Below are positions 2,387 through 17,356 of a stretch of 64,000 nt of DNA, piece by piece (the stretch's first letter is position 1; each line of letters opens with the position of its first letter). The DNA is from Escherichia coli (GTDB lineage: Bacteria; Pseudomonadota; Gammaproteobacteria; Enterobacterales; Enterobacteriaceae), in NCBI RefSeq assembly GCF_030013595.1, contig NZ_CP122768.1, one strand, 5' to 3'. The notes under the pieces are model-generated. The model worked only from the letters and a program-made list of their open reading frames with translations, did no database searches and was not told where the DNA came from. Made by a program: the position numbers and the translations under genes.

Positions 2387-2891
2387 ACAGGCTCGTGAGG
2401 CTCTGGATGCCTGGATATGTCGACCAGGAATGACACAGGAGCAGGCGACGATATTAATCACTGAAGCATTCTGGGCTTTGAAAGAGCGCCCGAACATCGA
2501 TGTTCAGCGTGTCACAGATGAAGGTGGCGCGGTTGATCAGCGAGCGCTTGGCGTTAATCGAGTGAAGATATTCGAACGCTGGAAGGCTATCGACACTAGG
2601 GATAAGCGTGAAAAGTTCACGGCGCTAGTGCCTGCAATTATGGAGGCTATCCGGATTAATGATTTCAGGTTGTATCGTGAAATTAGTGACGGAAAAAGCA
2701 TCACGTACATGATCGCCGGGTTAAACAAAGAATATGGCGATGTGGTGGAGTCCGGACTGCTTTTTGCTGATCCTGCCGTAGTGGATCGTGAAACTGACGA
2801 ACTTATAGAAAAAGCAATTGCTTTCAAACTTGCGTATCGACTGCAATACCAACAAAAAGCTGGATGGAATTATGAGCCTTCTTTTTGCTGA
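2370..2891 (+). CDS. YdaT-like prophage regulatory protein (CII-position protein)
   Basis: 173-aa ORF directly after the cro-like gene, overlapping its stop; resembles the YdaT family from memory. Confidence 0.55.
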   Translation: MKITPEQAREALDAWICRPGMTQEQATILITEAFWALKERPNIDVQRVTDEGGAVDQRALGVNRVKIFERWKAIDTRDKREKFTALVPAIMEAIRINDFRLYREISDGKSITYMIAGLNKEYGDVVESGLLFADPAVVDRETDELIEKAIAFKLAYRLQYQQKAGWNYEPSFC

Positions 2892-3837
2892 ACGCCCACT
2901 GGTTATAAACACACAGCTTGCGATGAAGATTGGCTTAAATGAAGCCATTGTGTTGCAGCAGTTGCATTACTGGTTGAGAGATACCAATTCCGGCATGGAA
3001 TGTGATGGTGTTCGCTGGATTTACAACACAACGGAACAATGGCTGGAACAGTTCCCATTCTGGCCAGAGTCAACGTTAAAGCGCGCGTTTGCAAGTCTGA
3101 AAACGCTGGGGCTTTTGCGTTGTGAAAAGCTCAATAAATCAAAGCGCGATATGACCAATTTCTACACGATCAACTATGGGAGCGAGCTTTTAGATGGTGG
3201 CAAATTGAACGAATCCATCGGTTCAAAATGCGCCGCTCCATCAGGTCAAAATGACACGATGGAAGAGGTCAAAATGAAACGCTCCATTGGTTCAAAACGA
3301 CCCAATGTCATCGGGTCAAAATGGCCTGATGATCTTACAGAGAATACAACAGAGATTACTACAGAGAATAAAAACACTTTTCGTCCGGAAGCTTCGCAAC
3401 CGGACCCGCAGACCGCTGAACAGGATTTTTTAACCCGGAACCCCGACGCGGTTGTGTTTAGTGCGAAAAAACGCCAGTGGGGTAGCAGGGAGGATTTGGC
3501 GTGTGCGCAGTGGATTTGGGGGCGGATCGTGAACCTTTACGAACAGGCTGCCAGCGACGATGGAGAGATCATGCGACCAAAAGAGCCTAACTGGACAGCC
3601 TGGGCCAATGACGTGCGCACAATGCGGATGCTGGATGGCAGAAGCCACAGACAAATTTGCGAAATGTTTGGTCGGGTACAGCGAGATCCATTCTGGGTAA
3701 AAAACATCATGAGCCCGTCAAAACTCCGCGAAAAATGGGACGAACTGGTCATCCGCTTGGGACGTTCACCTGTACAGCGTTGTGTGAATCATATTTCTGA
3801 ACCGGATACAGAAATTCCGCCTGGTTTCAGGGGATAA
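2872..3837 (+). CDS. Replication initiation protein, lambda O-like
   Basis: Position after cro/cII-like genes; contains iteron-like DNA repeats internally (translated as repeated IGSK motifs), as in lambda O/ori; start at MSLLFAERP. Confidence 0.65.
   Translation: MSLLFAERPLVINTQLAMKIGLNEAIVLQQLHYWLRDTNSGMECDGVRWIYNTTEQWLEQFPFWPESTLKRAFASLKTLGLLRCEKLNKSKRDMTNFYTINYGSELLDGGKLNESIGSKCAAPSGQNDTMEEVKMKRSIGSKRPNVIGSKWPDDLTENTTEITTENKNTFRPEASQPDPQTAEQDFLTRNPDAVVFSAKKRQWGSREDLACAQWIWGRIVNLYEQAASDDGEIMRPKEPNWTAWANDVRTMRMLDGRSHRQICEMFGRVQRDPFWVKNIMSPSKLREKWDELVIRLGRSPVQRCVNHISEPDTEIPPGFRG
3219..3324 (+). repeat. Putative replication origin iterons (about five copies of GGTCAAAATG-like repeat)
   Basis: cGGTTCAAAATG 3219..3230, GGTCAAAATG 3244..3253 and 3267..3276, GGTTCAAAACG 3289..3299, GGGTCAAAATGG 3314..3324, inside the O-like gene. 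Confidence 0.6.
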
Positions 3838-3877: not shown

Positions 3878-4273
3878 GTGGCAAAAGTTTTTACACAGGA
3901 AGAGCGGGAAAAAATTAAAGAGCAGGTGGTCGAACTTGTGCGCCAGAGCGGTCGCGAGACATTACGACAGTTGGAAGCTAAAACAGGTGCGACAAGATAT
4001 CTGATGAGCATTCTTGCCAGAGAGCTGGTTGCCAGTGGTTATGTATACAACTCCGGCTACGGGTTATTCCCGTCTGAACAGGCACGAAAGGACTGGCAAA
4101 ATGCCCGCAAAAAACTCTCTAGGGCGAAGGTGAAGAAACCCGCTGTGGTTGATCCGGACCTTATCTGGTCACTACCTGATGGAGAAATACGTCGCTACGA
4201 CAGTCGTCTAAACATAATCTGTCGCGAGTGCCGGAAGAGCGAAGTTATGCAGCGCATATTGTCGTTTTATTAG
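3878..4273 (+). CDS. Hypothetical 131-aa protein at the position where a helicase loader (P/DnaC) would be expected
   Basis: GTG start 4 nt after TAAGGAGG; no Walker motif seen; function unknown. Confidence 0.5.
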   Translation: MAKVFTQEEREKIKEQVVELVRQSGRETLRQLEAKTGATRYLMSILARELVASGYVYNSGYGLFPSEQARKDWQNARKKLSRAKVKKPAVVDPDLIWSLPDGEIRRYDSRLNIICRECRKSEVMQRILSFY

Positions 4274-4615
4274 GGAAATGTTCGGTATCTATTTAAGTGA
4301 CGAGATTAAAGTGCATTAGTTAAGATGTAAATTGACATTTTCATGGCATAGGGTAGAGGTAGCGTGGTTGTCTGCTTTGTGCCATGAACTGATGTCGCTT
4401 GTGTGCGTGGCAATTAGTGTATAACGGATATCATCAGACTCCAGCAGTAGCATTGCTTGAGCATACTAACATATGAAATCTTTAGTTAACGTAAGATAAA
4501 TTAGATTTAGTTTTTTTGAGTATGAGCTCATAAATAATCAAAAAAACTTGATACGCCATATGACTTTGATTTATTTTGGGAAAATATAAAGGTAATGTAA
4601 TGTAAAGAGGAAAAT

Positions 4616-6103
4616 GTGGACATTAGAGACTGGCTACCAGAATTTCAAGTTTCAGCAGAAACAGATCGGGACTTACAGACCTATTTTTTTAAGCTACCGG
4701 CGATAAAGGATATTATTGAAAGTAGGGCTTGGTTGGTTCTTGGAAGAAAAGGTACTGGTAAAACAGCCATTTATGAACACCTTAGAAGAGGAAAACCAGC
4801 CAATCTCAACGGGTTTTACTCAGTATGTCTAAATTTTAGTGACTATCCATGGCCAGCCCATCAACTTTACAAGGATGCAATGGCTGGAGAACTTTCCGCT
4901 TATCAAAAAAGTTGGATGTATCTTTTTTATATTAAGGCATTATCTAAACTTATTGAAATAAAAAATGATGCTGGAGAGACTTTAAACAAAGATCTAACGT
5001 GGGCACATAATTATATCAAAACTATCTTTGGTAGTCCCGACCCAACTCTTAGGGAGGTTTTGTTTTCAAAAATAACCAGATTAAAAACCATAAAAGGGCC
5101 CAGTGCTGGTCTTAATGAAGTATCATTGGACGCAGGTGAAATTTCGTTAGAGGAAGTTGCTGAGAATGCTCAGCTAAAGCAAAAGCTAAGAGCTAATGCT
5201 TTCACATTGCTTACGTATTTTGAAAAAATTTTTAAAGATAACATTGGTAATGAAAAAATAATTATCGCCCTTGACCAATTAGACGAAAACTGGCTAGAGG
5301 GGCAAATTGAAGAATATAGTAAGGTTTTAATAAATCTGCTAAATGTCTGTAGAAACATAGCATCTGATGAACGCCTCAATGATAAATTAAAAGTCATTCC
5401 CTTCCTACGAACGGATATTTATCATTCTTTGAAATTCAATGATAAAAACAAATTATTGCAAGATAGTGCTATCATAATCTCATGGAATGAAAATAATCTA
5501 AACGATATGTATTATGAGAGGATAAAGAAATACAAACCTAATGATCTCATATTAGATGACGAAAAGGACAGATCTGGGAAAGTATTTGAGGTTTCATTCG
5601 TTAGGCAGGGGACTCCTCCATTTAAATATATATGTCGCCGTTCTTTCTTTAGGCCTAGGGATATTATTGTCTACTTCAACAAAATTAGGGCATGTCATAA
5701 AAATAATGTCTCAGGTCTTTACACTTCCAATGAGCTTTATGAAGCTGACCGTGAAGCATCTATAAGTGTGTACAATGAGGTGATTGATGAATGGTCCAAC
5801 CAATTCCCTGAAATTGAGAACTTACTAACTGTTCTTCAAACTATCCAAGTAGAAACATTCGATTTTAATGATTTCTCCGAGAAGTGCCGTAATGAATTTG
5901 CAGGTATTTCTGATGGGGTGATACGTCAATATATCAACTTCCTGTTTGATAACTCACTTATCGGACAAAAAAAACAAGGTAGATGGGAATACGTAAGTAG
6001 TTTGCCTAACTTAAAAATTAATCTACAAAATGAGTTTAGGACACATCATGCTTTAAAATACAGGTTGCATTTAATAGAAAGCAGACCGAGCCAAAATATT
6101 TAG
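4616..6103 (+). CDS. AAA+/STAND-like P-loop NTPase (495 aa), AT-rich moron; candidate defence gene
   Basis: GTG start 6 nt after AAGAGG; Walker A GRKGTGKT (4742..4765); Walker B-like IIIALDQLDE (5258..5287); AT-rich codon usage unlike flanking phage genes. Confidence 0.8.
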   Translation: MDIRDWLPEFQVSAETDRDLQTYFFKLPAIKDIIESRAWLVLGRKGTGKTAIYEHLRRGKPANLNGFYSVCLNFSDYPWPAHQLYKDAMAGELSAYQKSWMYLFYIKALSKLIEIKNDAGETLNKDLTWAHNYIKTIFGSPDPTLREVLFSKITRLKTIKGPSAGLNEVSLDAGEISLEEVAENAQLKQKLRANAFTLLTYFEKIFKDNIGNEKIIIALDQLDENWLEGQIEEYSKVLINLLNVCRNIASDERLNDKLKVIPFLRTDIYHSLKFNDKNKLLQDSAIIISWNENNLNDMYYERIKKYKPNDLILDDEKDRSGKVFEVSFVRQGTPPFKYICRRSFFRPRDIIVYFNKIRACHKNNVSGLYTSNELYEADREASISVYNEVIDEWSNQFPEIENLLTVLQTIQVETFDFNDFSEKCRNEFAGISDGVIRQYINFLFDNSLIGQKKQGRWEYVSSLPNLKINLQNEFRTHHALKYRLHLIESRPSQNI

Positions 6104-6266
6104 CTTACATCCATCTCCATTAAGAAATCTTGCTATTGTTCTTATGGATCGTCTTTCTGACTGATTTCATATTGGCGAGGTAAAGGTAGTTAAGTAGAAT
6201 GGCTGCGGGTGCTTGAGGCTATCTGCCTCGGGCATGAACACCAAAGGCAGATAGAGAAAAGCCCCA

Positions 6267-8141
6267 GTTAACATTACGCGTCCTGCAAGACGCTTAACAT
6301 TAATCTGAGGCCAATTTCATGCTAGACACATGTAGGTTAGCCTCTTACGTGCCGAAAGGCAAGGAGAAGCAGGCTAGTGTTAACACCAAGCTGTAATGTC
6401 CCCTTTGAACCATTCTAAAATGTCCCCAGACAATTCTCTGGGGGATTTTTCATGATCAAAGAGACTGTTACGATGAGTCATAAGGAACTCCACCGACTTC
6501 AGATTATTCAGGAGTCAATTAATCGACATATTACTCAGGAACAAGCTGCGGCACGCATTGGCATTTCTATTCGGCAGGTTAAACGTCTGGTGCAACGGTA
6601 TAGAAATGAAGGGCCTTCTGGTCTGGTTTCCCACCGACGTGGAAAGCGTCCTAATAATTCCTTTTCTACTGAATTCAGAGCAACAGTAATTTCACTCCTC
6701 AAAGGCCGTTACGCTGATTTTGGACCTACGTTTGCGTGCGAAAAATTGCGCGAGATACACGGTTTATCTTTATCCGTTGAAACTCTCAGAAAGTGGATGA
6801 TAGAAGAGGGGTTATGGCGTGAACGCCGTCGTAAAATTGCCCGTATATATCAACGCCGCATGCGACGACCATCTTACGGTGAACTGATCCAGATTGATGG
6901 CTCACCTCATGACTGGTTTGAAAATCGAGGCCCCAGATGTACACTGATCGTTTTCATTGATGATGCCACCAGTGCGTTGATGGCGTTGCGTTTTGTGCCT
7001 GCTGAAACAACCCGGGCTTACATGGAAACCCTCCGGGGTTACCTTAATGATCATGGCGTACCGCTCGCTCTCTACTCTGATAGACACAGTATATTCAGGG
7101 TAAATAACCCAGAGCGGGAAGGTGAGCTGACCCAGTTCACTCGTGCGATAAAGACACTGGGCATCGAGCCAATCCATGCCAACAGCCCGCAGGCAAAAGG
7201 GCGGGTAGAGCGCGCCAATCAGACACTACAGGACAGGCTGGTCAAAGAAATGCGGCTTCAGAATATCAGTGATATTGAAACAGCAAATGCATGGTTGCCG
7301 ACCTTTATTGAAGCCTATAACAACCGGTTCGCTACGTCGCCTCGTACTACTGATAATGCTCATCTTGATGAGCACCATTCTGAAGAGGAACTGGGTTATA
7401 TCTTCAGCCTACAGGCGAAGCGCGTTCTGTCTAAAAATCTCACTTTCCAGTACAAAAGCAGTGCGTTTCAGGTACGCAGTGAGGGCCGGGGATATCGACT
7501 TAGGCATTCGGTTGTTACTGTATGCGAGAACTTTGACGGTGAAATTAACGTTCTGTATGACGGGAAAGCGCTGGGCTGGGAAAAGTATGTTGATGGCCCG
7601 GAGCCTATACCACTGGATGATGAAAAGAGTGTCCATGAACGAGTGGATAATGCCCGTATTGATTTACGCTCAAAATACTATGTTAAACCTAAAGCTGACC
7701 ATCCCTGGCTTACGCGCCGAACGCAAAGTCATCAGCAAGTTAAGCCCCCGAAGTTACCTAAAAAGAAGCCTGATCCCGATAAAAAAGATTGAAACCAAGA
7801 TCGATTCGGTTGAGTGCATATCCATTCATAGGGTAGATTCTTAAGTCGCGTTTCTGGTGTTCATTTTCGGGTGGTTTGTTACTTGTTTTACCGGGGATAT
7901 GCCAGAAACGCGCTGAGTCAGTCTGGGCGGTGCGCGTAATGAGGCGTTATGGTAAATAGCCTATGCTAATGTCCGCTAAGAGCAAGAAGCGGAAGTTGGC
8001 AGTTTTGTGGACTGTCCCCACAAAAGTGACTACAGAAATAGTTGCAATTCATAATTGATCATGGGTTGTCAGTTAAACTCGTGGCGATTTAAATAGACTA
8101 ATTGGGAGTGCGTCCATTACTTATATCTTGTAATGTTAACT
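6267..8141. mobile_element. Insertion sequence (single-ORF DDE/rve transposase; IS481 or ISNCY-like); boundaries approximate
   Basis: 446-aa transposase ORF; 12-bp inverted match AGTTAACATTAC at 6267..6278 and 8130..8141 proposed as termini; no clear target-site duplication. Confidence 0.45.
6452..7792 (+). CDS. Transposase with N-terminal HTH and integrase-core (DDE) domain
   Basis: 446 aa; HTH (AARIGISIRQVKRLV) and rve-like core (..IQIDGSPHDWF.. ..LYSDRHSIF..); basic lysine-rich C-terminus. Confidence 0.85.
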   Translation: MIKETVTMSHKELHRLQIIQESINRHITQEQAAARIGISIRQVKRLVQRYRNEGPSGLVSHRRGKRPNNSFSTEFRATVISLLKGRYADFGPTFACEKLREIHGLSLSVETLRKWMIEEGLWRERRRKIARIYQRRMRRPSYGELIQIDGSPHDWFENRGPRCTLIVFIDDATSALMALRFVPAETTRAYMETLRGYLNDHGVPLALYSDRHSIFRVNNPEREGELTQFTRAIKTLGIEPIHANSPQAKGRVERANQTLQDRLVKEMRLQNISDIETANAWLPTFIEAYNNRFATSPRTTDNAHLDEHHSEEELGYIFSLQAKRVLSKNLTFQYKSSAFQVRSEGRGYRLRHSVVTVCENFDGEINVLYDGKALGWEKYVDGPEPIPLDDEKSVHERVDNARIDLRSKYYVKPKADHPWLTRRTQSHQQVKPPKLPKKKPDPDKKD

Positions 8142-9093: not shown

Positions 9094-9333
9094 ATGGGTA
9101 GCATTAACCTGCGTATTGACGATGAACTTAAAGCGCGTTCTTACGCCGCGCTTGAAAAAATGGGTGTAACTCCTTCTGAAGCGCTTCGTCTCATGCTCGA
9201 GTATATCGCTGACAATGAACGCTTGCCGTTCAAACAGACACTCCTGAGTGATGAAGATGCTGAACTTGTGGAGATAGTGAAAGAACGGCTTCGTAATCCT
9301 AAGCCAGTACGTGTGACGCTGGATGAACTCTGA
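9094..9333 (+). CDS. relB: Antitoxin RelB
   Basis: 79 aa MGSINLRIDDELKARSYAALEKMGVTPSEALRLMLEYIADNERLPF... matches RelB. Confidence 0.9.
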   Translation: MGSINLRIDDELKARSYAALEKMGVTPSEALRLMLEYIADNERLPFKQTLLSDEDAELVEIVKERLRNPKPVRVTLDEL

Positions 9334-9620
9334 TGGCGTATTTTCTGGATTTTGACGAGCGGGCACTAAAGGAATGGCGAAAGCTGGGCTCGACGGTACG
9401 TGAACAGTTGAAAAAGAAGCTGGTTGAAGTAATTGAGTCACCCCGGATTGAAGCAAACAAGCTCCGTGGTATGCCTGATTGTTACAAGATTAAGCTCCGG
9501 TCTTCAGGCTATCGCCTTGTATACCAGGTTATAGACGAGAAAGTTGTCGTTTTCGTGATTTCTGTTGGGAAAAGAGAACGCTCGGAAGTATATAGCGAGG
9601 CGGTCAAACGCATTCTCTGA
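9333..9620 (+). CDS. relE: mRNA interferase toxin RelE
   Basis: 95 aa MAYFLDFDERALKEWRKLGSTVREQLKKKL... matches RelE; start overlaps relB stop. Confidence 0.9.
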   Translation: MAYFLDFDERALKEWRKLGSTVREQLKKKLVEVIESPRIEANKLRGMPDCYKIKLRSSGYRLVYQVIDEKVVVFVISVGKRERSEVYSEAVKRIL

Positions 9621-9691
9621 ACCAAAGCATGACATCTCTGTTTCGCACCGAAGGTGACACTTCTGCTTTGCGTTGACAGGAGAAGCAGGCT

Positions 9692-9847
9692 ATGAAGCAG
9701 CAAAAGGCGATGTTAATCGCCCTGATCGTCATCTGTTTAACCGTCATAGTGACGGCACTGGTAACGAGGAAAGACCTCTGCGAGGTACGAATCCGAACCG
9801 GCCAGACGGAGGTCGCTGTCTTCACAGCTTACGAACCTGAGGAGTAA
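9692..9847 (+). CDS. hokD: Hok-family type I toxin HokD (RelF), 51 aa
   Basis: Translation MKQQKAMLIALIVICLTVIVTALVTRKDLCEVRIRTGQTEVAVFTAYEPEE; below ORF-track size cut-off, found by reading. Confidence 0.8.
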   Translation: MKQQKAMLIALIVICLTVIVTALVTRKDLCEVRIRTGQTEVAVFTAYEPEE

Positions 9848-9945: not shown

Positions 9946-10063
9946 TTCAACGCGTTTGAAGTTCTGGACGGTGCCGGAATAGAATCAAAAATACTTAAGT
10001 AGCGCGCAGGGATAAGAGGGATGGTCCCTTAAAGGGGAGAGCTAATTATCCGGAAGGATTCTG

Positions 10064-10315
10064 ATGATGAACATCGAAGAACTGCGTAAAATTTTTTGTG
10101 AAGATGGCCTCTATGCTGTGTGCGTTGAAAATGGAAATCTTGTTAGTCATTACCGCATTATGTGTTTGCGAAAGAATGGGGCTGCGTTAATTAATTTTGT
10201 GGATGGTCGAGTGACAGACAGATTTATCTTGCGCGAAGGTGAGTTTGTCACTTCATTACAGGCACTGAAAGAGATCGGAATAAAAGCAGGCTTTTCAGCT
10301 TTTGCAGAAGAATAA
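10064..10315 (+). CDS. rem: Rem-like small prophage protein (83 aa)
   Basis: 83-aa ORF MMNIEELRKIFCEDGLYAVCVENG... at the position of rem between hokD and ydfU. Confidence 0.55.
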   Translation: MMNIEELRKIFCEDGLYAVCVENGNLVSHYRIMCLRKNGAALINFVDGRVTDRFILREGEFVTSLQALKEIGIKAGFSAFAEE

Positions 10316-10381
10316 ACTCATCTACAATCTTGCGCGGGGCTGAACTCCCGCTGAGTAACACCGTGCCACCGGAGAAAACCG

Positions 10382-10660
10382 ATGGCACGCAACGTAAAAT
10401 ATTACAATTCTGATAATTCGCCCGTTCTTGCCTGCACGCACGAGCGGTATTCTCACGCATTCAAGTCTGAATGGTTCCAACACCCTCCATGCACTGAAGA
10501 GCAGGCTGAATGGATAATTCAGTGTTACCGCAGGCGCGGATACGAGGTTAAGAAAGCCCTTAGTCTCGACTACCGTCACTGGATAATCTCAGTCAGATTG
10601 CCTTACTCCGAACGCCCACCACGTGCGTCCCGCACTTTCCAGCAACGGATCTGGAGGTAA
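10382..10660 (+). CDS. Hypothetical 92-aa protein immediately upstream of ydfU
   Basis: ORF ends 1 nt before the proposed ydfU GTG start; Cys/His-rich N-terminus. Confidence 0.4.
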   Translation: MARNVKYYNSDNSPVLACTHERYSHAFKSEWFQHPPCTEEQAEWIIQCYRRRGYEVKKALSLDYRHWIISVRLPYSERPPRASRTFQQRIWR

Positions 10661-10661
10661 C

Positions 10662-11711
10662 GTGCGGGTATTACTTAGACCTGTTCTGGTGCCTGAGCTT
10701 GGGCTGGTGGTCCTTAAGCCGGGCCGTGAATCCATACAGATATTTCATAATCCTCGAGTGCTGGTGGAACCGGAACCAAAAAGCATGCGTAATCTGCCAT
10801 CCGGAGTCGTTCCTGCCGTTGGCCAGCCGCTGGCGGAAGACAAAACATTGCTGCCGTTTTTTAGTAACGAACGGGTGATTCGTGCTGCTGGCGGCGTTGG
10901 CTCATTGTCTGACTGGCTATTACGTCATGTTACATCCTGCCAGTGGCCTAATGGCGATTACCATCACACTGAAACAGTCATTCACCGTTATGGTACCGGC
11001 GCAATGGTGTTGTGTTGGCACTGCGACAACCAACTGCGTGACCAGACATCGGAATCACTGGAGCTGCTTGCTCAACAAAATCTGACAGCATGGGTGATTG
11101 ACGTCATCCGTCACGCAATAAGCGGTACGCAGGAGCGGGAATTATCTTTGGCTGAATTATCCTGGTGGGCGGTCTGCAATCAGGTGGTGGATGCACTACC
11201 TGAGGCTGTATCGCGTCGTTCGCTGGGATTACCAGCGGAAAAAATCTGCTCGGTGTACCGCGAAAGCGACATCGTACCGGGAGAGCAGACCGCCACCAGC
11301 ATATTGAAACAACGCACAAAAAATCTTGCACCGTTGCCTTACGCCCACCAGCAACAAAAACTACCACAGGAAAAGACGGTGGTAAGCATCACCGTTGATC
11401 CAGAGTCTCCGGAATCTTTCATGAAGCTGCCTAAACGTCGCCGCTGGGTTAAGGAGAAATACACACGTTGGGTTAAGACACAGCCGTGTGCTTGCTGCGG
11501 TATGCCAGCCGACGATCCGCATCATCTGATTGGTCACGGGCAGGGCGGAATGGGAACAAAAGCACATGATCTCTTTGTGTTGCCTTTGTGCAGAAAGCAT
11601 CACAACGAGCTGCATACGGATACAGTGGCATTTGAAGAGAAGTATGGCTCCCAACTGGAGCTGATATTTCGTTTTATCGATCGCGCGCTGGCAATTGGCG
11701 TACTGGCGTAA
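10662..11711 (+). CDS. ydfU: YdfU-like DUF968 protein with C-terminal HNH-like nuclease motif
   Basis: GTG after GGAGG gives 349 aa; motif CACCG..DDPHHLIGHGQGG..LCRKHHNELH at 11487..11615. Confidence 0.65.
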   Translation: MRVLLRPVLVPELGLVVLKPGRESIQIFHNPRVLVEPEPKSMRNLPSGVVPAVGQPLAEDKTLLPFFSNERVIRAAGGVGSLSDWLLRHVTSCQWPNGDYHHTETVIHRYGTGAMVLCWHCDNQLRDQTSESLELLAQQNLTAWVIDVIRHAISGTQERELSLAELSWWAVCNQVVDALPEAVSRRSLGLPAEKICSVYRESDIVPGEQTATSILKQRTKNLAPLPYAHQQQKLPQEKTVVSITVDPESPESFMKLPKRRRWVKEKYTRWVKTQPCACCGMPADDPHHLIGHGQGGMGTKAHDLFVLPLCRKHHNELHTDTVAFEEKYGSQLELIFRFIDRALAIGVLA

Positions 11712-11724
11712 GTGGAGAACGAGC

Positions 11725-12477
11725 ATGAACCTTGAAGCCTTACCAAAATATTACTCCCCAAAATCTCCAAAATTGAGCGATGACGCTCCAGCGACAGGCA
11801 CCGGTTGTTTAACAATTACGGATGTAATGGCAGCGCAGGGGATGGTGCAGTCGAAAGCACCACTTGGGTTGGCCTTATTTCTGGCAAAAGTTGGTGTTCA
11901 GGACCCTCAGTTTGCGATTGAAGGCCTGCTAAATTACGCGATGGCACTGGATAACCCGACATTGAACAAATTGAGTGAAGAAATCCGGTTACAGATTATT
12001 CCTTACCTCGTGAGTTTTGCCTTTGCTGATTACTCCAGGTCTGCGGCAAGTAAGGCTCGCTGTGAGCATTGTTCAGGTACGGGATTTTATAATGTATTGC
12101 GCGAAGTGGTGAAACACTACAGACGCGGGGAATCTGTAATCAAGGAAGAATGGGTGAAGGAACTATGTCAGCATTGCCATGGTAAGGGCGAAGCCAGCAC
12201 AGCGTGCAGAGGGTGTAAGGGTAAAGGGATTGTTCTGGATGAAAAAAGAACCCGGTTTCATGGCGTACCGGTATATAAGATTTGTGGGCGTTGTAATGGA
12301 AACCGGTTTAGTCGTTTACCGACCACGCTGGCACGACGTCATGTCCAGAAGCTGGTACCAGACCTGACCGATTATCAGTGGTATAAGGGGTATGCGGACG
12401 TCATTGGTAAACTGGTAACAAAGTGCTGGCAGGAAGAAGCATACGCGGAAGCGCAATTGAGGAAGGTGACGAGATAA
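11725..12477 (+). CDS. quuQ: Late-gene antiterminator Q
   Basis: 250 aa from MNLEALPKYY with GGAG upstream; Cys-rich zinc-binding region (CEHCSGTGF..CQHCHGKG..CRGCKGKG); followed by promoter and terminator. Confidence 0.75.
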   Translation: MNLEALPKYYSPKSPKLSDDAPATGTGCLTITDVMAAQGMVQSKAPLGLALFLAKVGVQDPQFAIEGLLNYAMALDNPTLNKLSEEIRLQIIPYLVSFAFADYSRSAASKARCEHCSGTGFYNVLREVVKHYRRGESVIKEEWVKELCQHCHGKGEASTACRGCKGKGIVLDEKRTRFHGVPVYKICGRCNGNRFSRLPTTLARRHVQKLVPDLTDYQWYKGYADVIGKLVTKCWQEEAYAEAQLRKVTR

Positions 12478-14907: not shown

Positions 14908-15935
<1,028 letters not shown>

Positions 15936-16296
15936 GGTAATATTAAATCGGAACATTTACATCGCGGAATGTAAAATTTAAATAAAAAGGACTCTTCCAT
16001 GAGCCAAAATTCCTGAAATCTTAAGGGTAAGATAAAAGGTCTTAATCAGAATGACACGTTTTATTAATAAATAAAGCTATTCTTTCATTGCTGTGTTTTT
16101 CTTTACAAAAGTAATCCTTGCTATGGGTGGTTAATCATGCGTTAATGGTGTTCTGGTTTGTTACAAATTTATCTGAAGCAGTCATTGTTATAATTTTATT
16201 ATTTGTACCTCTTGAGATTTCCTTGTTGGTTTTTCTCTCTGATATTTTTTTCGGACCATTCTGCCCAAGGGCTAATTTCTTCAAAAGGTAATAATT

Positions 16297-16509
16297 ATGT
16301 CTAACAAAATGACTGGTTTAGTAAAATGGTTTAACCCTGAAAAAGGTTTTGGTTTCATCACGCCGAAAGATGGCAGCAAAGATGTGTTTGTCCATTTCTC
16401 AGCAATTCAGAGCAACGATTTCAAAACATTAACTGAGAATCAGGAAGTTGAATTTGGTATTGAGAACGGACCTAAAGGTCCTGCCGCTGTTCATGTAGTG
16501 GCGCTTTGA
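16297..16509 (+). CDS. cspI: Cold shock protein CspI
   Basis: 70 aa [43 protein letters not shown]... Confidence 0.9.
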
Positions 16510-16780
16510 GGTAGACAATATTACAAACCATATTCACTTTAGATGCCCGTGTTGTCATGGTTCCCAGTATAGAACATCATCTTTTGATGTTTCTGACATG
16601 AATCCTTTCGGGGCAAAATGTATCTTTTGTAAATCAATGATGATTACATTTGATAATATTTCACAATACTTAAATGCCAGCCGTCTGTCGTTGGATTTAA
16701 AAAAGTGAAAATGAAGGCTCCTTCGGGAGCTTTTTGGCTTGGTGTCTATTCGATGGATACTCACATACTACGGTAACATC

Positions 16781-17011
16781 ATGAAAAAAATCATAGTTTT
16801 TTTTAACTCTGAACCAGCAGTGGTAGTGCCAGCGATGACTGGAGTTAACACCATCATGCGTGAATATCCAAATGGCGAAAAAACACACCTTACTGTAATG
16901 GCCGCAGGGTTTCCATCTCTGACCGGAGATCATAAAGTCATTTATGTAGCCGCGGATCGACATGTTACTTCAGAAGAAATTCTGGAAGCAGCAATAAGGC
17001 TCTTGAGTTGA
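16781..17011 (+). CDS. Hypothetical 76-aa protein
   Basis: ATG at 16781 (MKKIIVFFNSEPAVVVPAMTGVN...); no recognised homolog. Confidence 0.3.
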   Translation: MKKIIVFFNSEPAVVVPAMTGVNTIMREYPNGEKTHLTVMAAGFPSLTGDHKVIYVAADRHVTSEEILEAAIRLLS

Positions 17012-17182
17012 TTTGATGCTATTGCATTGATAATTCAGGAAAATTCTCTTTGTCTGTTTGTGTAAAATTTAGACTATCGTATGTTGATTATTGCGATGTT
17101 TCATCTTATCTTTTACACGTTTGCACCATATAATCGACTTACTGTGTAACTGGAAAGTCATAACAGACTAAAAGAGGAAATG

Positions 17183-17356
17183 ATGAATATTGAAAACTTA
17201 AAAACAAAAGCAGAAGCAGATATTTCTGAATATATAACAAAAAAAATTATTGAACTTAAGAAAAAGACCGGGAAAGAAGTTACCAGTATTCAGTTTACCG
17301 CACGGGAAAAAATGACGGGTCTTGAAAGCTATGATGTCAAGATTAATTTAATCTGA
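17183..17356 (+). CDS. gnsB: GnsB-family small protein (57 aa)
   Basis: MNIENLKTKAEADISEYITKKIIELKKKTGKEVTSIQFTAREKMTGLESYDVKINLI after AAAGAGGAAA; below ORF-track cut-off. Confidence 0.7.
   Translation: MNIENLKTKAEADISEYITKKIIELKKKTGKEVTSIQFTAREKMTGLESYDVKINLI

Follow-up and report, generated by a model that had tools for sequence, protein, structure and literature searches.

Introduction

The closest described relatives of the gene considered here are two anti-phage genes, fun(Z) of phage P2 and DS-41. Fun(Z), a protein of 528 residues (AAD03288.1) encoded at 15675-17261 of the P2 genome, blocks T5, T-even and other phages; the P2 genome record describes a nonessential gene of lysogenic conversion which blocks T5 growth when cloned and confers sensitivity to fluorodeoxyuridine (FUdR), and fun has been grouped with tin and old as the P2 superinfection-exclusion genes (PMC8987985). 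DS-41, also named "AAA2" (WP_033812887.1), is a single gene for a 502-residue protein that was validated by DeWeirdt et al. in the DefensePredictor study, where it protected by 1.4-5.3 logs against T4, Bas1, Candy, Bas63, Bas3, Bas19, Bas69 and Bas25 (PMC13092281). Here we analyse the gene of a P-loop ATPase found in a Qin-like, lambdoid prophage that is integrated next to rspB in a 64,000-nucleotide stretch of an Escherichia coli genome (contig NZ_CP122768.1 of assembly GCF_030013595.1; the whole stretch is hereafter called the window).

An initial annotation had presented this gene as a candidate single-gene anti-phage defence that was as yet undescribed. The candidacy stands, as the family of the gene holds both Fun(Z) and DS-41, while the novelty does not, the family being already named. 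We propose that the gene probably encodes a phage-exclusion ATPase of the Fun(Z) family, carried as a moron of the Qin-like prophage, and that its clade has a defensive role; the defensive part of this proposal rests on homology at 18-24% identity plus genomic context. For a specialist, the gene itself is an ordinary and unsurprising candidate for prophage exclusion. With it, the Fun(Z) family gains a lambdoid-prophage clade, and the comparisons below show that fun(Z), DS-41 and the 'P-loop ATPase, Sll1717 family' are one protein family under three names. The 'FunZ protein' labels in TrEMBL imply part of this unity, and no paper stating it was found in the literature searched. Searches on Sll1717, WP_000354584, FunZ and recent Fun/Z work found no relevant literature, and neither the protein nor its motifs were found in the portions consulted of the supplements to the DefensePredictor and P2/P4 hotspot papers. 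A survey of STAND proteins, which covers those with sensor domains of at least 400 residues, gives no placement for the window protein (10.64898/2026.01.04.697583).

Relationship to Fun(Z), DS-41 and the Sll1717 family

The window protein matched the NCBIfam profile NF047389, 'P-loop ATPase, Sll1717 family', with 250.4 bits (E 3.8e-74; curated cutoff, 75 bits), residues 13-484 aligning with positions 5-454 of the 454 in the profile, and RefSeq gives the same family name to the identical protein. A second full-length match was to phrog_13260, the PHROG that includes Fun(Z) of phage P2, with an E-value of 7.6e-34 and residues 14-485 aligned to positions 14-490 of 497. Membership in the Fun(Z)/Sll1717 family is, on these profile matches, essentially certain, and the earlier view of the family as unassigned and possibly novel has to be abandoned: the gene belongs to a family that already has a name, and what appears to be new, as known from sequence, is the clade. 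At E <= 0.001 the family comprises 1373 representative clusters (50% identity), mostly of solitary proteins with 470-520 residues. The close clade of the window protein, 63-72% identical, extends over Gammaproteobacteria, Nitrosomonas, Campylobacterota, Bacteroidota and Bdellovibrionota. Outside this family little was recovered: a Pfam-A search with the protein gave nothing significant, and searches of PDB sequences with the protein and with its profile returned P-loop-level noise alone.

Fun(Z) was reached by way of the P2 genome record, to which several relatives residing in P2-like prophages pointed. On NF047389 Fun(Z) scored 209 bits over its full length, and on phrog_13260 it scored 706 bits; the RefSeq name of chromosomal P2 fun(Z) copies is 'P-loop ATPase, Sll1717 family', and an hhalign comparison of the alignment of the window clade (A1) with Fun(Z) was colinear over 467 columns (99.6% probability, E 1e-24). 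The best structural match of the AlphaFold2 (AF2) model in AFDB50 was a Tenacibaculum protein named 'FunZ protein' in TrEMBL (63% identity, TM 0.86/0.94), and several further AFDB50 matches carry the same label. Fun(Z) has the motifs GEKGTGKTA (Walker A), ILFIDGID (Walker B), LIRPDIFES...NQNAK (the family signature, conserved as LIRPDIFESIGLQNQNAK) and YRPRD. In common with the window protein it thus has a Walker A of the form GxKGTGKTA, a Walker B of the form hhhhDxhD, (L/I)R.DI(Y/F)...NK, YRPRD/FRPRD and a C-terminal winged helix, and each is encoded by a single gene, AT-rich and non-essential, that occupies an accessory slot in a temperate phage. A full-length profile match, the motif set and life as a solitary, AT-rich, mobile cargo gene are the features that place the window gene in the Fun(Z) family. 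The two differ in that Fun(Z) is 33 residues longer, in that fun(Z) lies between the P2 tail genes G and FI whereas the window gene lies between replication genes and hok in a lambdoid setting, and in that a phage range has been measured for Fun(Z) whereas the window clade is known from sequence. The name 'FunZ' also occurs among product names on Bacillus plasmids.

The path to DS-41 led through distant family members that weakly match NF053860 'DS41_1_antiphage'. Full-length DS-41 scored 414 bits on this equivalog, its own, and 97.6 bits on NF047389, and NCBI names its close homologues 'Sll1717 family'. The alignment of the window clade and that of the DS-41 clade (A2) matched over 420 colinear columns (98.7%, E 1.7e-16), and a direct hhalign comparison of DS-41 with Fun(Z) was weak (18% probability). 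With this weak match, and with a pairwise identity of just 18% between the window protein and Fun(Z), the window, Fun(Z) and DS-41 clades are three distinct ones that are joined via the central Sll1717 profile; between DS-41 and the window protein, the sequences indicate remote homology only. Both are single-gene ATPases of about 500 residues without an effector domain, which have in common an N-terminal AE..P/D motif, Walker A, Walker B, an arginine (R302 in the window protein, R331 in DS-41) and (R/S)PR(D/E), and they differ in the sensor-1 region (FLRxD in the window protein, FxW in DS-41).

PADLOC v2 has no model for the family, and none for Fun(Z) either, so that such genes may go uncounted in defence censuses, and the RefSeq name does not convey the anti-phage evidence. 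A conserved and broadly transferred clade such as this one could aid comparative and structural work on the mechanism of the family.

Architecture of the predicted ATPase

The initial annotation had described an ORF (open reading frame) with a GTG start and an AAGAGG upstream of it; all three were recovered, with a spacing of 5 nt rather than 6 nt. Homologues from other genera start with MDIKDW, and their ATG lines up with this GTG; a coding sequence (CDS) of the same 1488 nt is annotated by RefSeq in further E. coli genomes. A chance reading frame can be dismissed, because hundreds of full-length homologues exist and nonsynonymous divergence (dN) is far below synonymous divergence (dS): dN was 0.06-0.23 and dS was saturated among homologues, with a ratio (omega) of about 0.07 in one pair with estimable dS. 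The protein is under purifying selection and is horizontally mobile, since its gene keeps a G+C content of 27-35% in GC-richer hosts, where the flanks reach 54-56%, and dN stays far below dS.

The AF2 model, built from a 45-sequence alignment, had a mean pLDDT (predicted local distance difference test) of 85.9 and a pTM (predicted template modelling score) of 0.84, residues 153-180 being the sole poorly modelled stretch. In this model a P-loop core (39-310) and a helical lid (311-396) stand between a short N-terminal segment and a winged-helix-like domain, and these four parts cover the 495 residues wholly. Its best structural matches include Orc1/Cdc6, DnaA and TnsC, and the model is best described as an AAA+ core resembling those of ORC/Cdc6 or STAND proteins, which is joined to a lid and a winged helix and lacks an effector domain. 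As the initial annotation had stated, nothing resembling an effector was recognised: Pfam-A, the AF2 model and sequence analysis showed no nuclease, TIR, SIR2, protease, transmembrane element or repeats in the 495 residues.

The set of catalytic motifs, whose positions are collected in Table 1, is complete. The Walker A and Walker B motifs lie exactly where they had first been placed, and we take the Walker B to be of the NACHT-like form hhhhDxhDE. R265, in the family signature, is likely the sensor-1 residue. R302 is, from its conservation and its DS-41 counterpart, a candidate arginine finger, and the RPRD at the start of the lid helix, which is YRPRD in Fun(Z) and SPRE in DS-41, is a candidate sensor-2 or GxP-like motif. 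S382 and E392 are further invariant residues in alignment A1. The helical insert after the second core strand contains an invariant W100 and the low-confidence loop 153-180; going by the description of the HEH insert of ORC/STAND proteins (10.1101/2025.10.09.681413), it sits at the HEH/ISM insert position of these proteins. Within the clade, the entropy profile peaked at residues 61-75, in the insert at 106-135 and 151-180, and at 301-330 and 421-435; it was lowest at 76-105, 226-240, 271-285 and 331-345.

The likeness to ORC/Cdc6- and STAND-type AAA+ proteins (Orc1/Cdc6, SSO1545, BrxC, Avs) is one of architecture, with Pfam AAA_16 and ORC-CDC6-like matches that were only faint. Unlike Avs and NLR proteins, the window protein has neither a TPR, WD40 or LRR sensor arm nor an N-terminal effector; unlike BrxC of BREX, it has no partner proteins; and its gene is not part of a replication module.

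Table 1. Positions in the window of the ATPase gene, its conserved or predicted parts, its cassette and its neighbours
Feature	Position	Strand	Basis or remark
ATPase CDS, 495 aa, 1488 nt, GTG start	4616-6103	+	ORF and translation; identical to WP_000354584.1
N-terminal segment, residues 1-38, motif (F/v)..AE.D..L..YF, invariant F24	4616-4729	+	Alignment A1; counterpart in DS-41 and Fun(Z)
Walker A GRKGTGKT, residues 43-50; G43, K45, G46, G48, K49 invariant	4742-4765	+	Alignment A1
Helical insert of ~130 aa, residues 79-210, after core strand 2	4850-5245	+	AF2 secondary structure, pLDDT, entropy profile
Walker B IIIALDQLDE, residues 215-224; D220, D223 invariant	5258-5287	+	Alignment A1
Family signature FLRTDIYHSLKFNDKNK, residues 263-279; R265, D276, K279 invariant	5402-5452	+	Alignment A1
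R302 codon, invariant	5519-5521	+	Aligns with invariant R331 of DS-41
RPRD, residues 346-349, start of lid helix; P347, R348 invariant	5651-5662	+	Alignment A1
C-terminal winged-helix-like domain, residues 397-495, H477 nearly invariant	5804-6100	+	AF2 model, alignment, ORC/Cdc6 three-domain matches
Shine-Dalgarno-like AAGAGG	4605-4610	+	5 nt upstream of GTG; read from sequence
Sigma-70-like site TTGATA-18-TATTTT, candidate own promoter	4548-4577	+	Inside cassette; promoter scan
AT-rich cargo cassette (moron)	4380-6127	+	Edges from comparison with prophages without the gene (DL21, S65EC, IAI1); G+C 0.30-0.37
O-like ORF, replication region	2818-3837		Upstream of ATPase gene
DUF977 gene, replication region	3878-4273		Left neighbour of cassette
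Partial IS1202-like transposase ORF	6452-7792		Follows ATPase gene
Q	11695-12477		Downstream of ATPase gene

A mobile cassette in a general moron slot

The setting that the initial annotation had given, between the replication genes and Q and near an insertion sequence (IS), was confirmed, as was a composition unlike that of the flanking genes: the ATPase gene has a G+C content of 0.351, and of 0.306 at third codon positions (GC3), against 0.451 in the flanks. Along the sequence, G+C is 0.30-0.37 from about 4200 to 6200 and 0.44-0.53 on either side. Homology to prophages without the gene stops at about 4379-4384 on the left and restarts at 6128-6142 on the right. These junctions, at about 4380 and 6128-6142, define a mobile unit of about 1.75 kb, which consists of 230 bp of AT-rich DNA before the ORF, the ORF itself and some 25-40 bp after it, and has an overall G+C content of about 35%. 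The gene had been credited with an AT-rich upstream region of its own, and the 230 bp bear this out. A promoter of its own is another matter: the scan found 8 sites where 8.1 are expected by chance, with no conserved promoter for the ATPase gene. Conservation of the upstream region is confined to the E. coli and Proteus cassettes, and no terminator was found directly after the gene.

The content of the slot, which is bounded by the DUF977 gene and the hok/sok leader, varies among strains: DL21 has nothing there, S65EC has queH (epoxyqueuosine reductase), and IAI1 has pseudogenes of a methyltransferase and of DUF7167. The slot serves morons in general and is not a dedicated defence hotspot. The ATPase gene is present in 42 of 5426 complete E. 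coli genomes (about 0.8%), among them that of the adherent-invasive (AIEC) strain NRG 857C, and always at an identity of at least 99.5%. Thirty-eight of these copies are intact, two are disrupted by IS3 and two are truncated.

Two readings that tie the gene to its neighbours can be judged from this distribution. One is that it encodes an ORC/Cdc6-like replication initiator or helicase loader of the prophage replication module just upstream. The gene directly follows the O-like and DUF977 genes, the AF2 model resembles Orc1/Cdc6, DnaA and TnsC, and there was a faint match to TIGR02928 orc1/cdc6 (E 0.12); on the other side, (i) DL21, IAI1 and S65EC share the replication module and yet lack the gene or have unrelated cargo in its place, (ii) homologues occur in tail, integrase-proximal and cos-proximal slots of P2-like phages, which replicate with gpA, (iii) other homologues lie on chromosomes with no phage nearby, and (iv) the G+C content is foreign to the module and no DnaC, IstB or lambda P match was found. 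We consider this reading very improbable, and the presence/absence pattern largely refutes it. NCBIfam and Pfam gave the window protein no match to DnaC/IstB, lambda P or TnsC, in agreement with the initial annotation, which had seen no likeness to the DnaC/P loaders.

The other reading makes the protein a transposition ATPase (TnsC-, IstB- or MuB-like) of the adjacent IS1202-like element. The ATPase gene is present without the IS in NRG 857C and the IS without the ATPase gene in IAI1, so that the two are unrelated; the hok/sok leader lies between them, and this transposase does not accompany the ATPase at any of the homologous loci. What speaks for the reading is the position of the two genes side by side in the window, and it deserves hardly any credence, being refuted by the independent distribution.

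Inverted repeats are reported to flank fun in P2 (PMC8987985), whereas none was found around the E. coli cassette in the window, nor, at the same settings, around P2 fun(Z). A Proteus prophage (L010) has a 17-nt inverted repeat (94% complementary, 9703-9719/11589-11605) that brackets its copy of the gene at 10001-11488 and recalls the repeats reported around P2 fun. In the window, a hairpin with 18-nt arms (78% complementary, 13-nt loop) at 4340-4388 straddles the left cassette junction at about 4380, and a second one with 15-nt arms (93% complementary) at 4509-4548 stands just before the promoter-like site.

Genomic habits of the relatives

It had been suggested that the occurrence of the gene in other prophages be examined, and lone relatives do turn up repeatedly in the accessory slots of P2-like and lambdoid prophages. 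The gpA-portal locus, defined as a P2 defence hotspot in PMC9122126, holds an 81%-identical Serratia copy and relatives of 25-28% identity. Three further slots of P2-like prophages hold relatives: one at the att-proximal end, behind ogr (L023, L024); one that separates tail gene U from the tail-fibre genes, occupied by a Klebsiella copy with 89% identity; and the P2 orf30 slot, between genes S and V (L059, L063, L065). Others adjoin the integrase of a Proteus lambdoid prophage, lie beside a filamentous prophage of V. cholerae, near an AbiTii gene on an Arcobacter element or next to pifC-pifA on a Klebsiella IncF plasmid, or occupy the lysin-attP slot of Lactococcus phage CAP. IMG/VR contains 54 viral contigs with a relative. 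Of the 37 copies on contigs of 20 kb or more, 11 lie no more than 2 kb from an end of their contig, where about 4.5 would be expected.

Some relatives carry additional domains (P0249, P0253, P0170, P0164): one has two EAD7 effector-associated adaptor domains inserted in the core, others have N-terminal cold-shock domains (CSDs) like those of the retron Se72 effector, and another has a C-terminal GT4 glycosyltransferase. These fusions may hint at how the solitary forms sense or signal. The C-terminal extensions of two longer relatives (P0189, P0257) had no Pfam match.

A probable role in phage exclusion

That the window gene serves phage exclusion is, in our judgement, the better supported reading of its role. 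The principal alternative holds that the selected role is not immunity, the gene being either a factor for lysogenic conversion or prophage maintenance whose target is host DNA or nucleotide metabolism, or an unexpressed passenger of a cryptic prophage. Fun(Z) does alter host physiology, as its FUdR phenotype shows, QueH and methyltransferases occupy the same slot in other strains, and some homologues reside in plain chromosomal islets; for a silent passenger one may cite the AT-richness of the cassette and the chance-level promoter scan. Against this, the protein is under strong purifying selection with its catalytic motifs intact across phyla, both family members that have been studied experimentally are anti-phage, and the family recurs in the P2 defence hotspot and in other slots of exclusion genes. 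The occasional disruption by IS elements or truncation is, moreover, typical of costly accessory defence genes. We regard a non-immune role as unlikely.

A second alternative accepts immunity and would make the ATPase the sensor or switch of a split system, with its effector encoded elsewhere or supplied by a host factor, so that, in a naive host, the gene would have no activity on its own. The lack of an effector domain fits such a scheme, as does the relative with two EAD7 domains, which in NTPase conflict systems couple to separate effectors, and the weak PADLOC relative PDC-M28C belongs to a multi-gene candidate. Clustering of the neighbours within 3.5 kb at 54 loci, however, revealed no conserved partner gene, and Fun(Z) and DS-41 each protect as single cloned genes in E. 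coli K-12, where they might nevertheless depend on a conserved host factor. Only a slim chance can be given to the split-system scheme.

A phage-exclusion role for the window gene must still be set against several points that weigh on the other side. (i), Function is transferred across a large sequence distance: pairwise BLASTP identity is 18% with Fun(Z) (E 4e-7) and 24% with DS-41 (E 0.003), and the window protein falls outside the DS-41 equivalog NF053860 (cutoff 370 bits), which it did not match at E <= 1. (ii), The PADLOC check that the initial annotation had proposed gave no significant match to a named system with PADLOC v2 (PADLOC-DB v2.0.0); PDC-M28C, a PADLOC candidate whose ATPase model has a similar length (480) and weakly matches many family members near Walker B and sensor 1, was hit at an E of only 4e-5 over about 90 residues (212-304), and PDC-M28 is multi-gene whereas the window gene is solitary. 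(iii), Expression in the lysogen is putative, the promoter scan being at chance level. (iv), Charge analysis revealed no strongly basic domain, so that DNA binding is not evident from charge. (v), Several homologues lie in small chromosomal islets without obvious defence neighbours, and non-defence cargo (QueH, methyltransferases) shares the slot between the DUF977 gene and hok, which means that location alone is not diagnostic. (vi), P2 Fun(Z) is the one member for which FUdR sensitivity together with a block of T5-like, T-even and further phages is known, and the trigger and output proposed for the window protein are conjecture.

With this in mind, a working model, in our view the most likely one, can be suggested from the ORC/STAND-like architecture, the full set of catalytic motifs, the lack of an effector or partner and the FUdR phenotype of Fun(Z). 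The ATPase would protect the lysogen against other phages. At rest it would be a monomer, which would become activated by a cue of lytic infection; as P2 Fun(Z) also sensitises cells to FUdR, we propose that this cue would probably be disturbed DNA replication or nucleotide metabolism. Activation would lead to ATP-dependent oligomerisation via R302 and RPRD, and the assembled ATPase would itself bring phage development to a halt, whether abortively or directly, with DNA, replication complexes or a host factor as its target. It is tempting to go further and to view the members of the Fun(Z) family as effector-less immune ATPases, in which a minimal ORC/STAND-like switch is sensor and executioner at once and is triggered by a disturbance of replication or of the nucleotide pool and not by a phage protein. 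Such a trigger would account for the FUdR phenotype of Fun(Z), and infection would be stopped by the ATP-driven assembly of the ATPase itself. We hold this generalisation to be speculative and rather doubtful; if true, it would amount to a kind of defence as yet undescribed among characterised systems, for which the widely transferred clade, at 63-72% conservation, would be a convenient model.

Neighbouring genes and minor observations

The DUF977 ORF to the left of the cassette ends at a TAG stop (4271-4273), nine codons short of the stop in its RefSeq homologue WP_001151126.1, whose CDS of 423 nt has its end at the equivalent of window position 4300; the TAG is either a premature stop or an allelic variant.

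To the right of the cassette, a hok/sok leader (Rfam RF01794, 111 bits) was found at 6207-6373. It is set apart from the hokD ORF (9692-9847) by a block of 3316 bp that contains the partial IS1202-like transposase, ydfW, flxA, ydfV and relBE. Homology to the uninterrupted hokD locus of DL21 stops at 6376, which is the A of the hokD ATG, and a direct repeat, AGGAGAAGCAGGCTA, at 6362-6376 and 9678-9692 flanks the inserted block; the region has no other direct repeat of 14 nt or more. Elements of the IS1202 family make long target duplications, and AGGAGAAGCAGGCTA may be a 15-bp target duplication of such an element, which, if so, would explain the position of hokD behind relBE. IAI1 has the same arrangement of leader, block and hokD. 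The prophage arm with the ATPase gene also holds intact relB, relE (9094-9620) and hokD, some 3-3.7 kb further downstream, so that this accessory region stacks several modules of the addiction or defence type.

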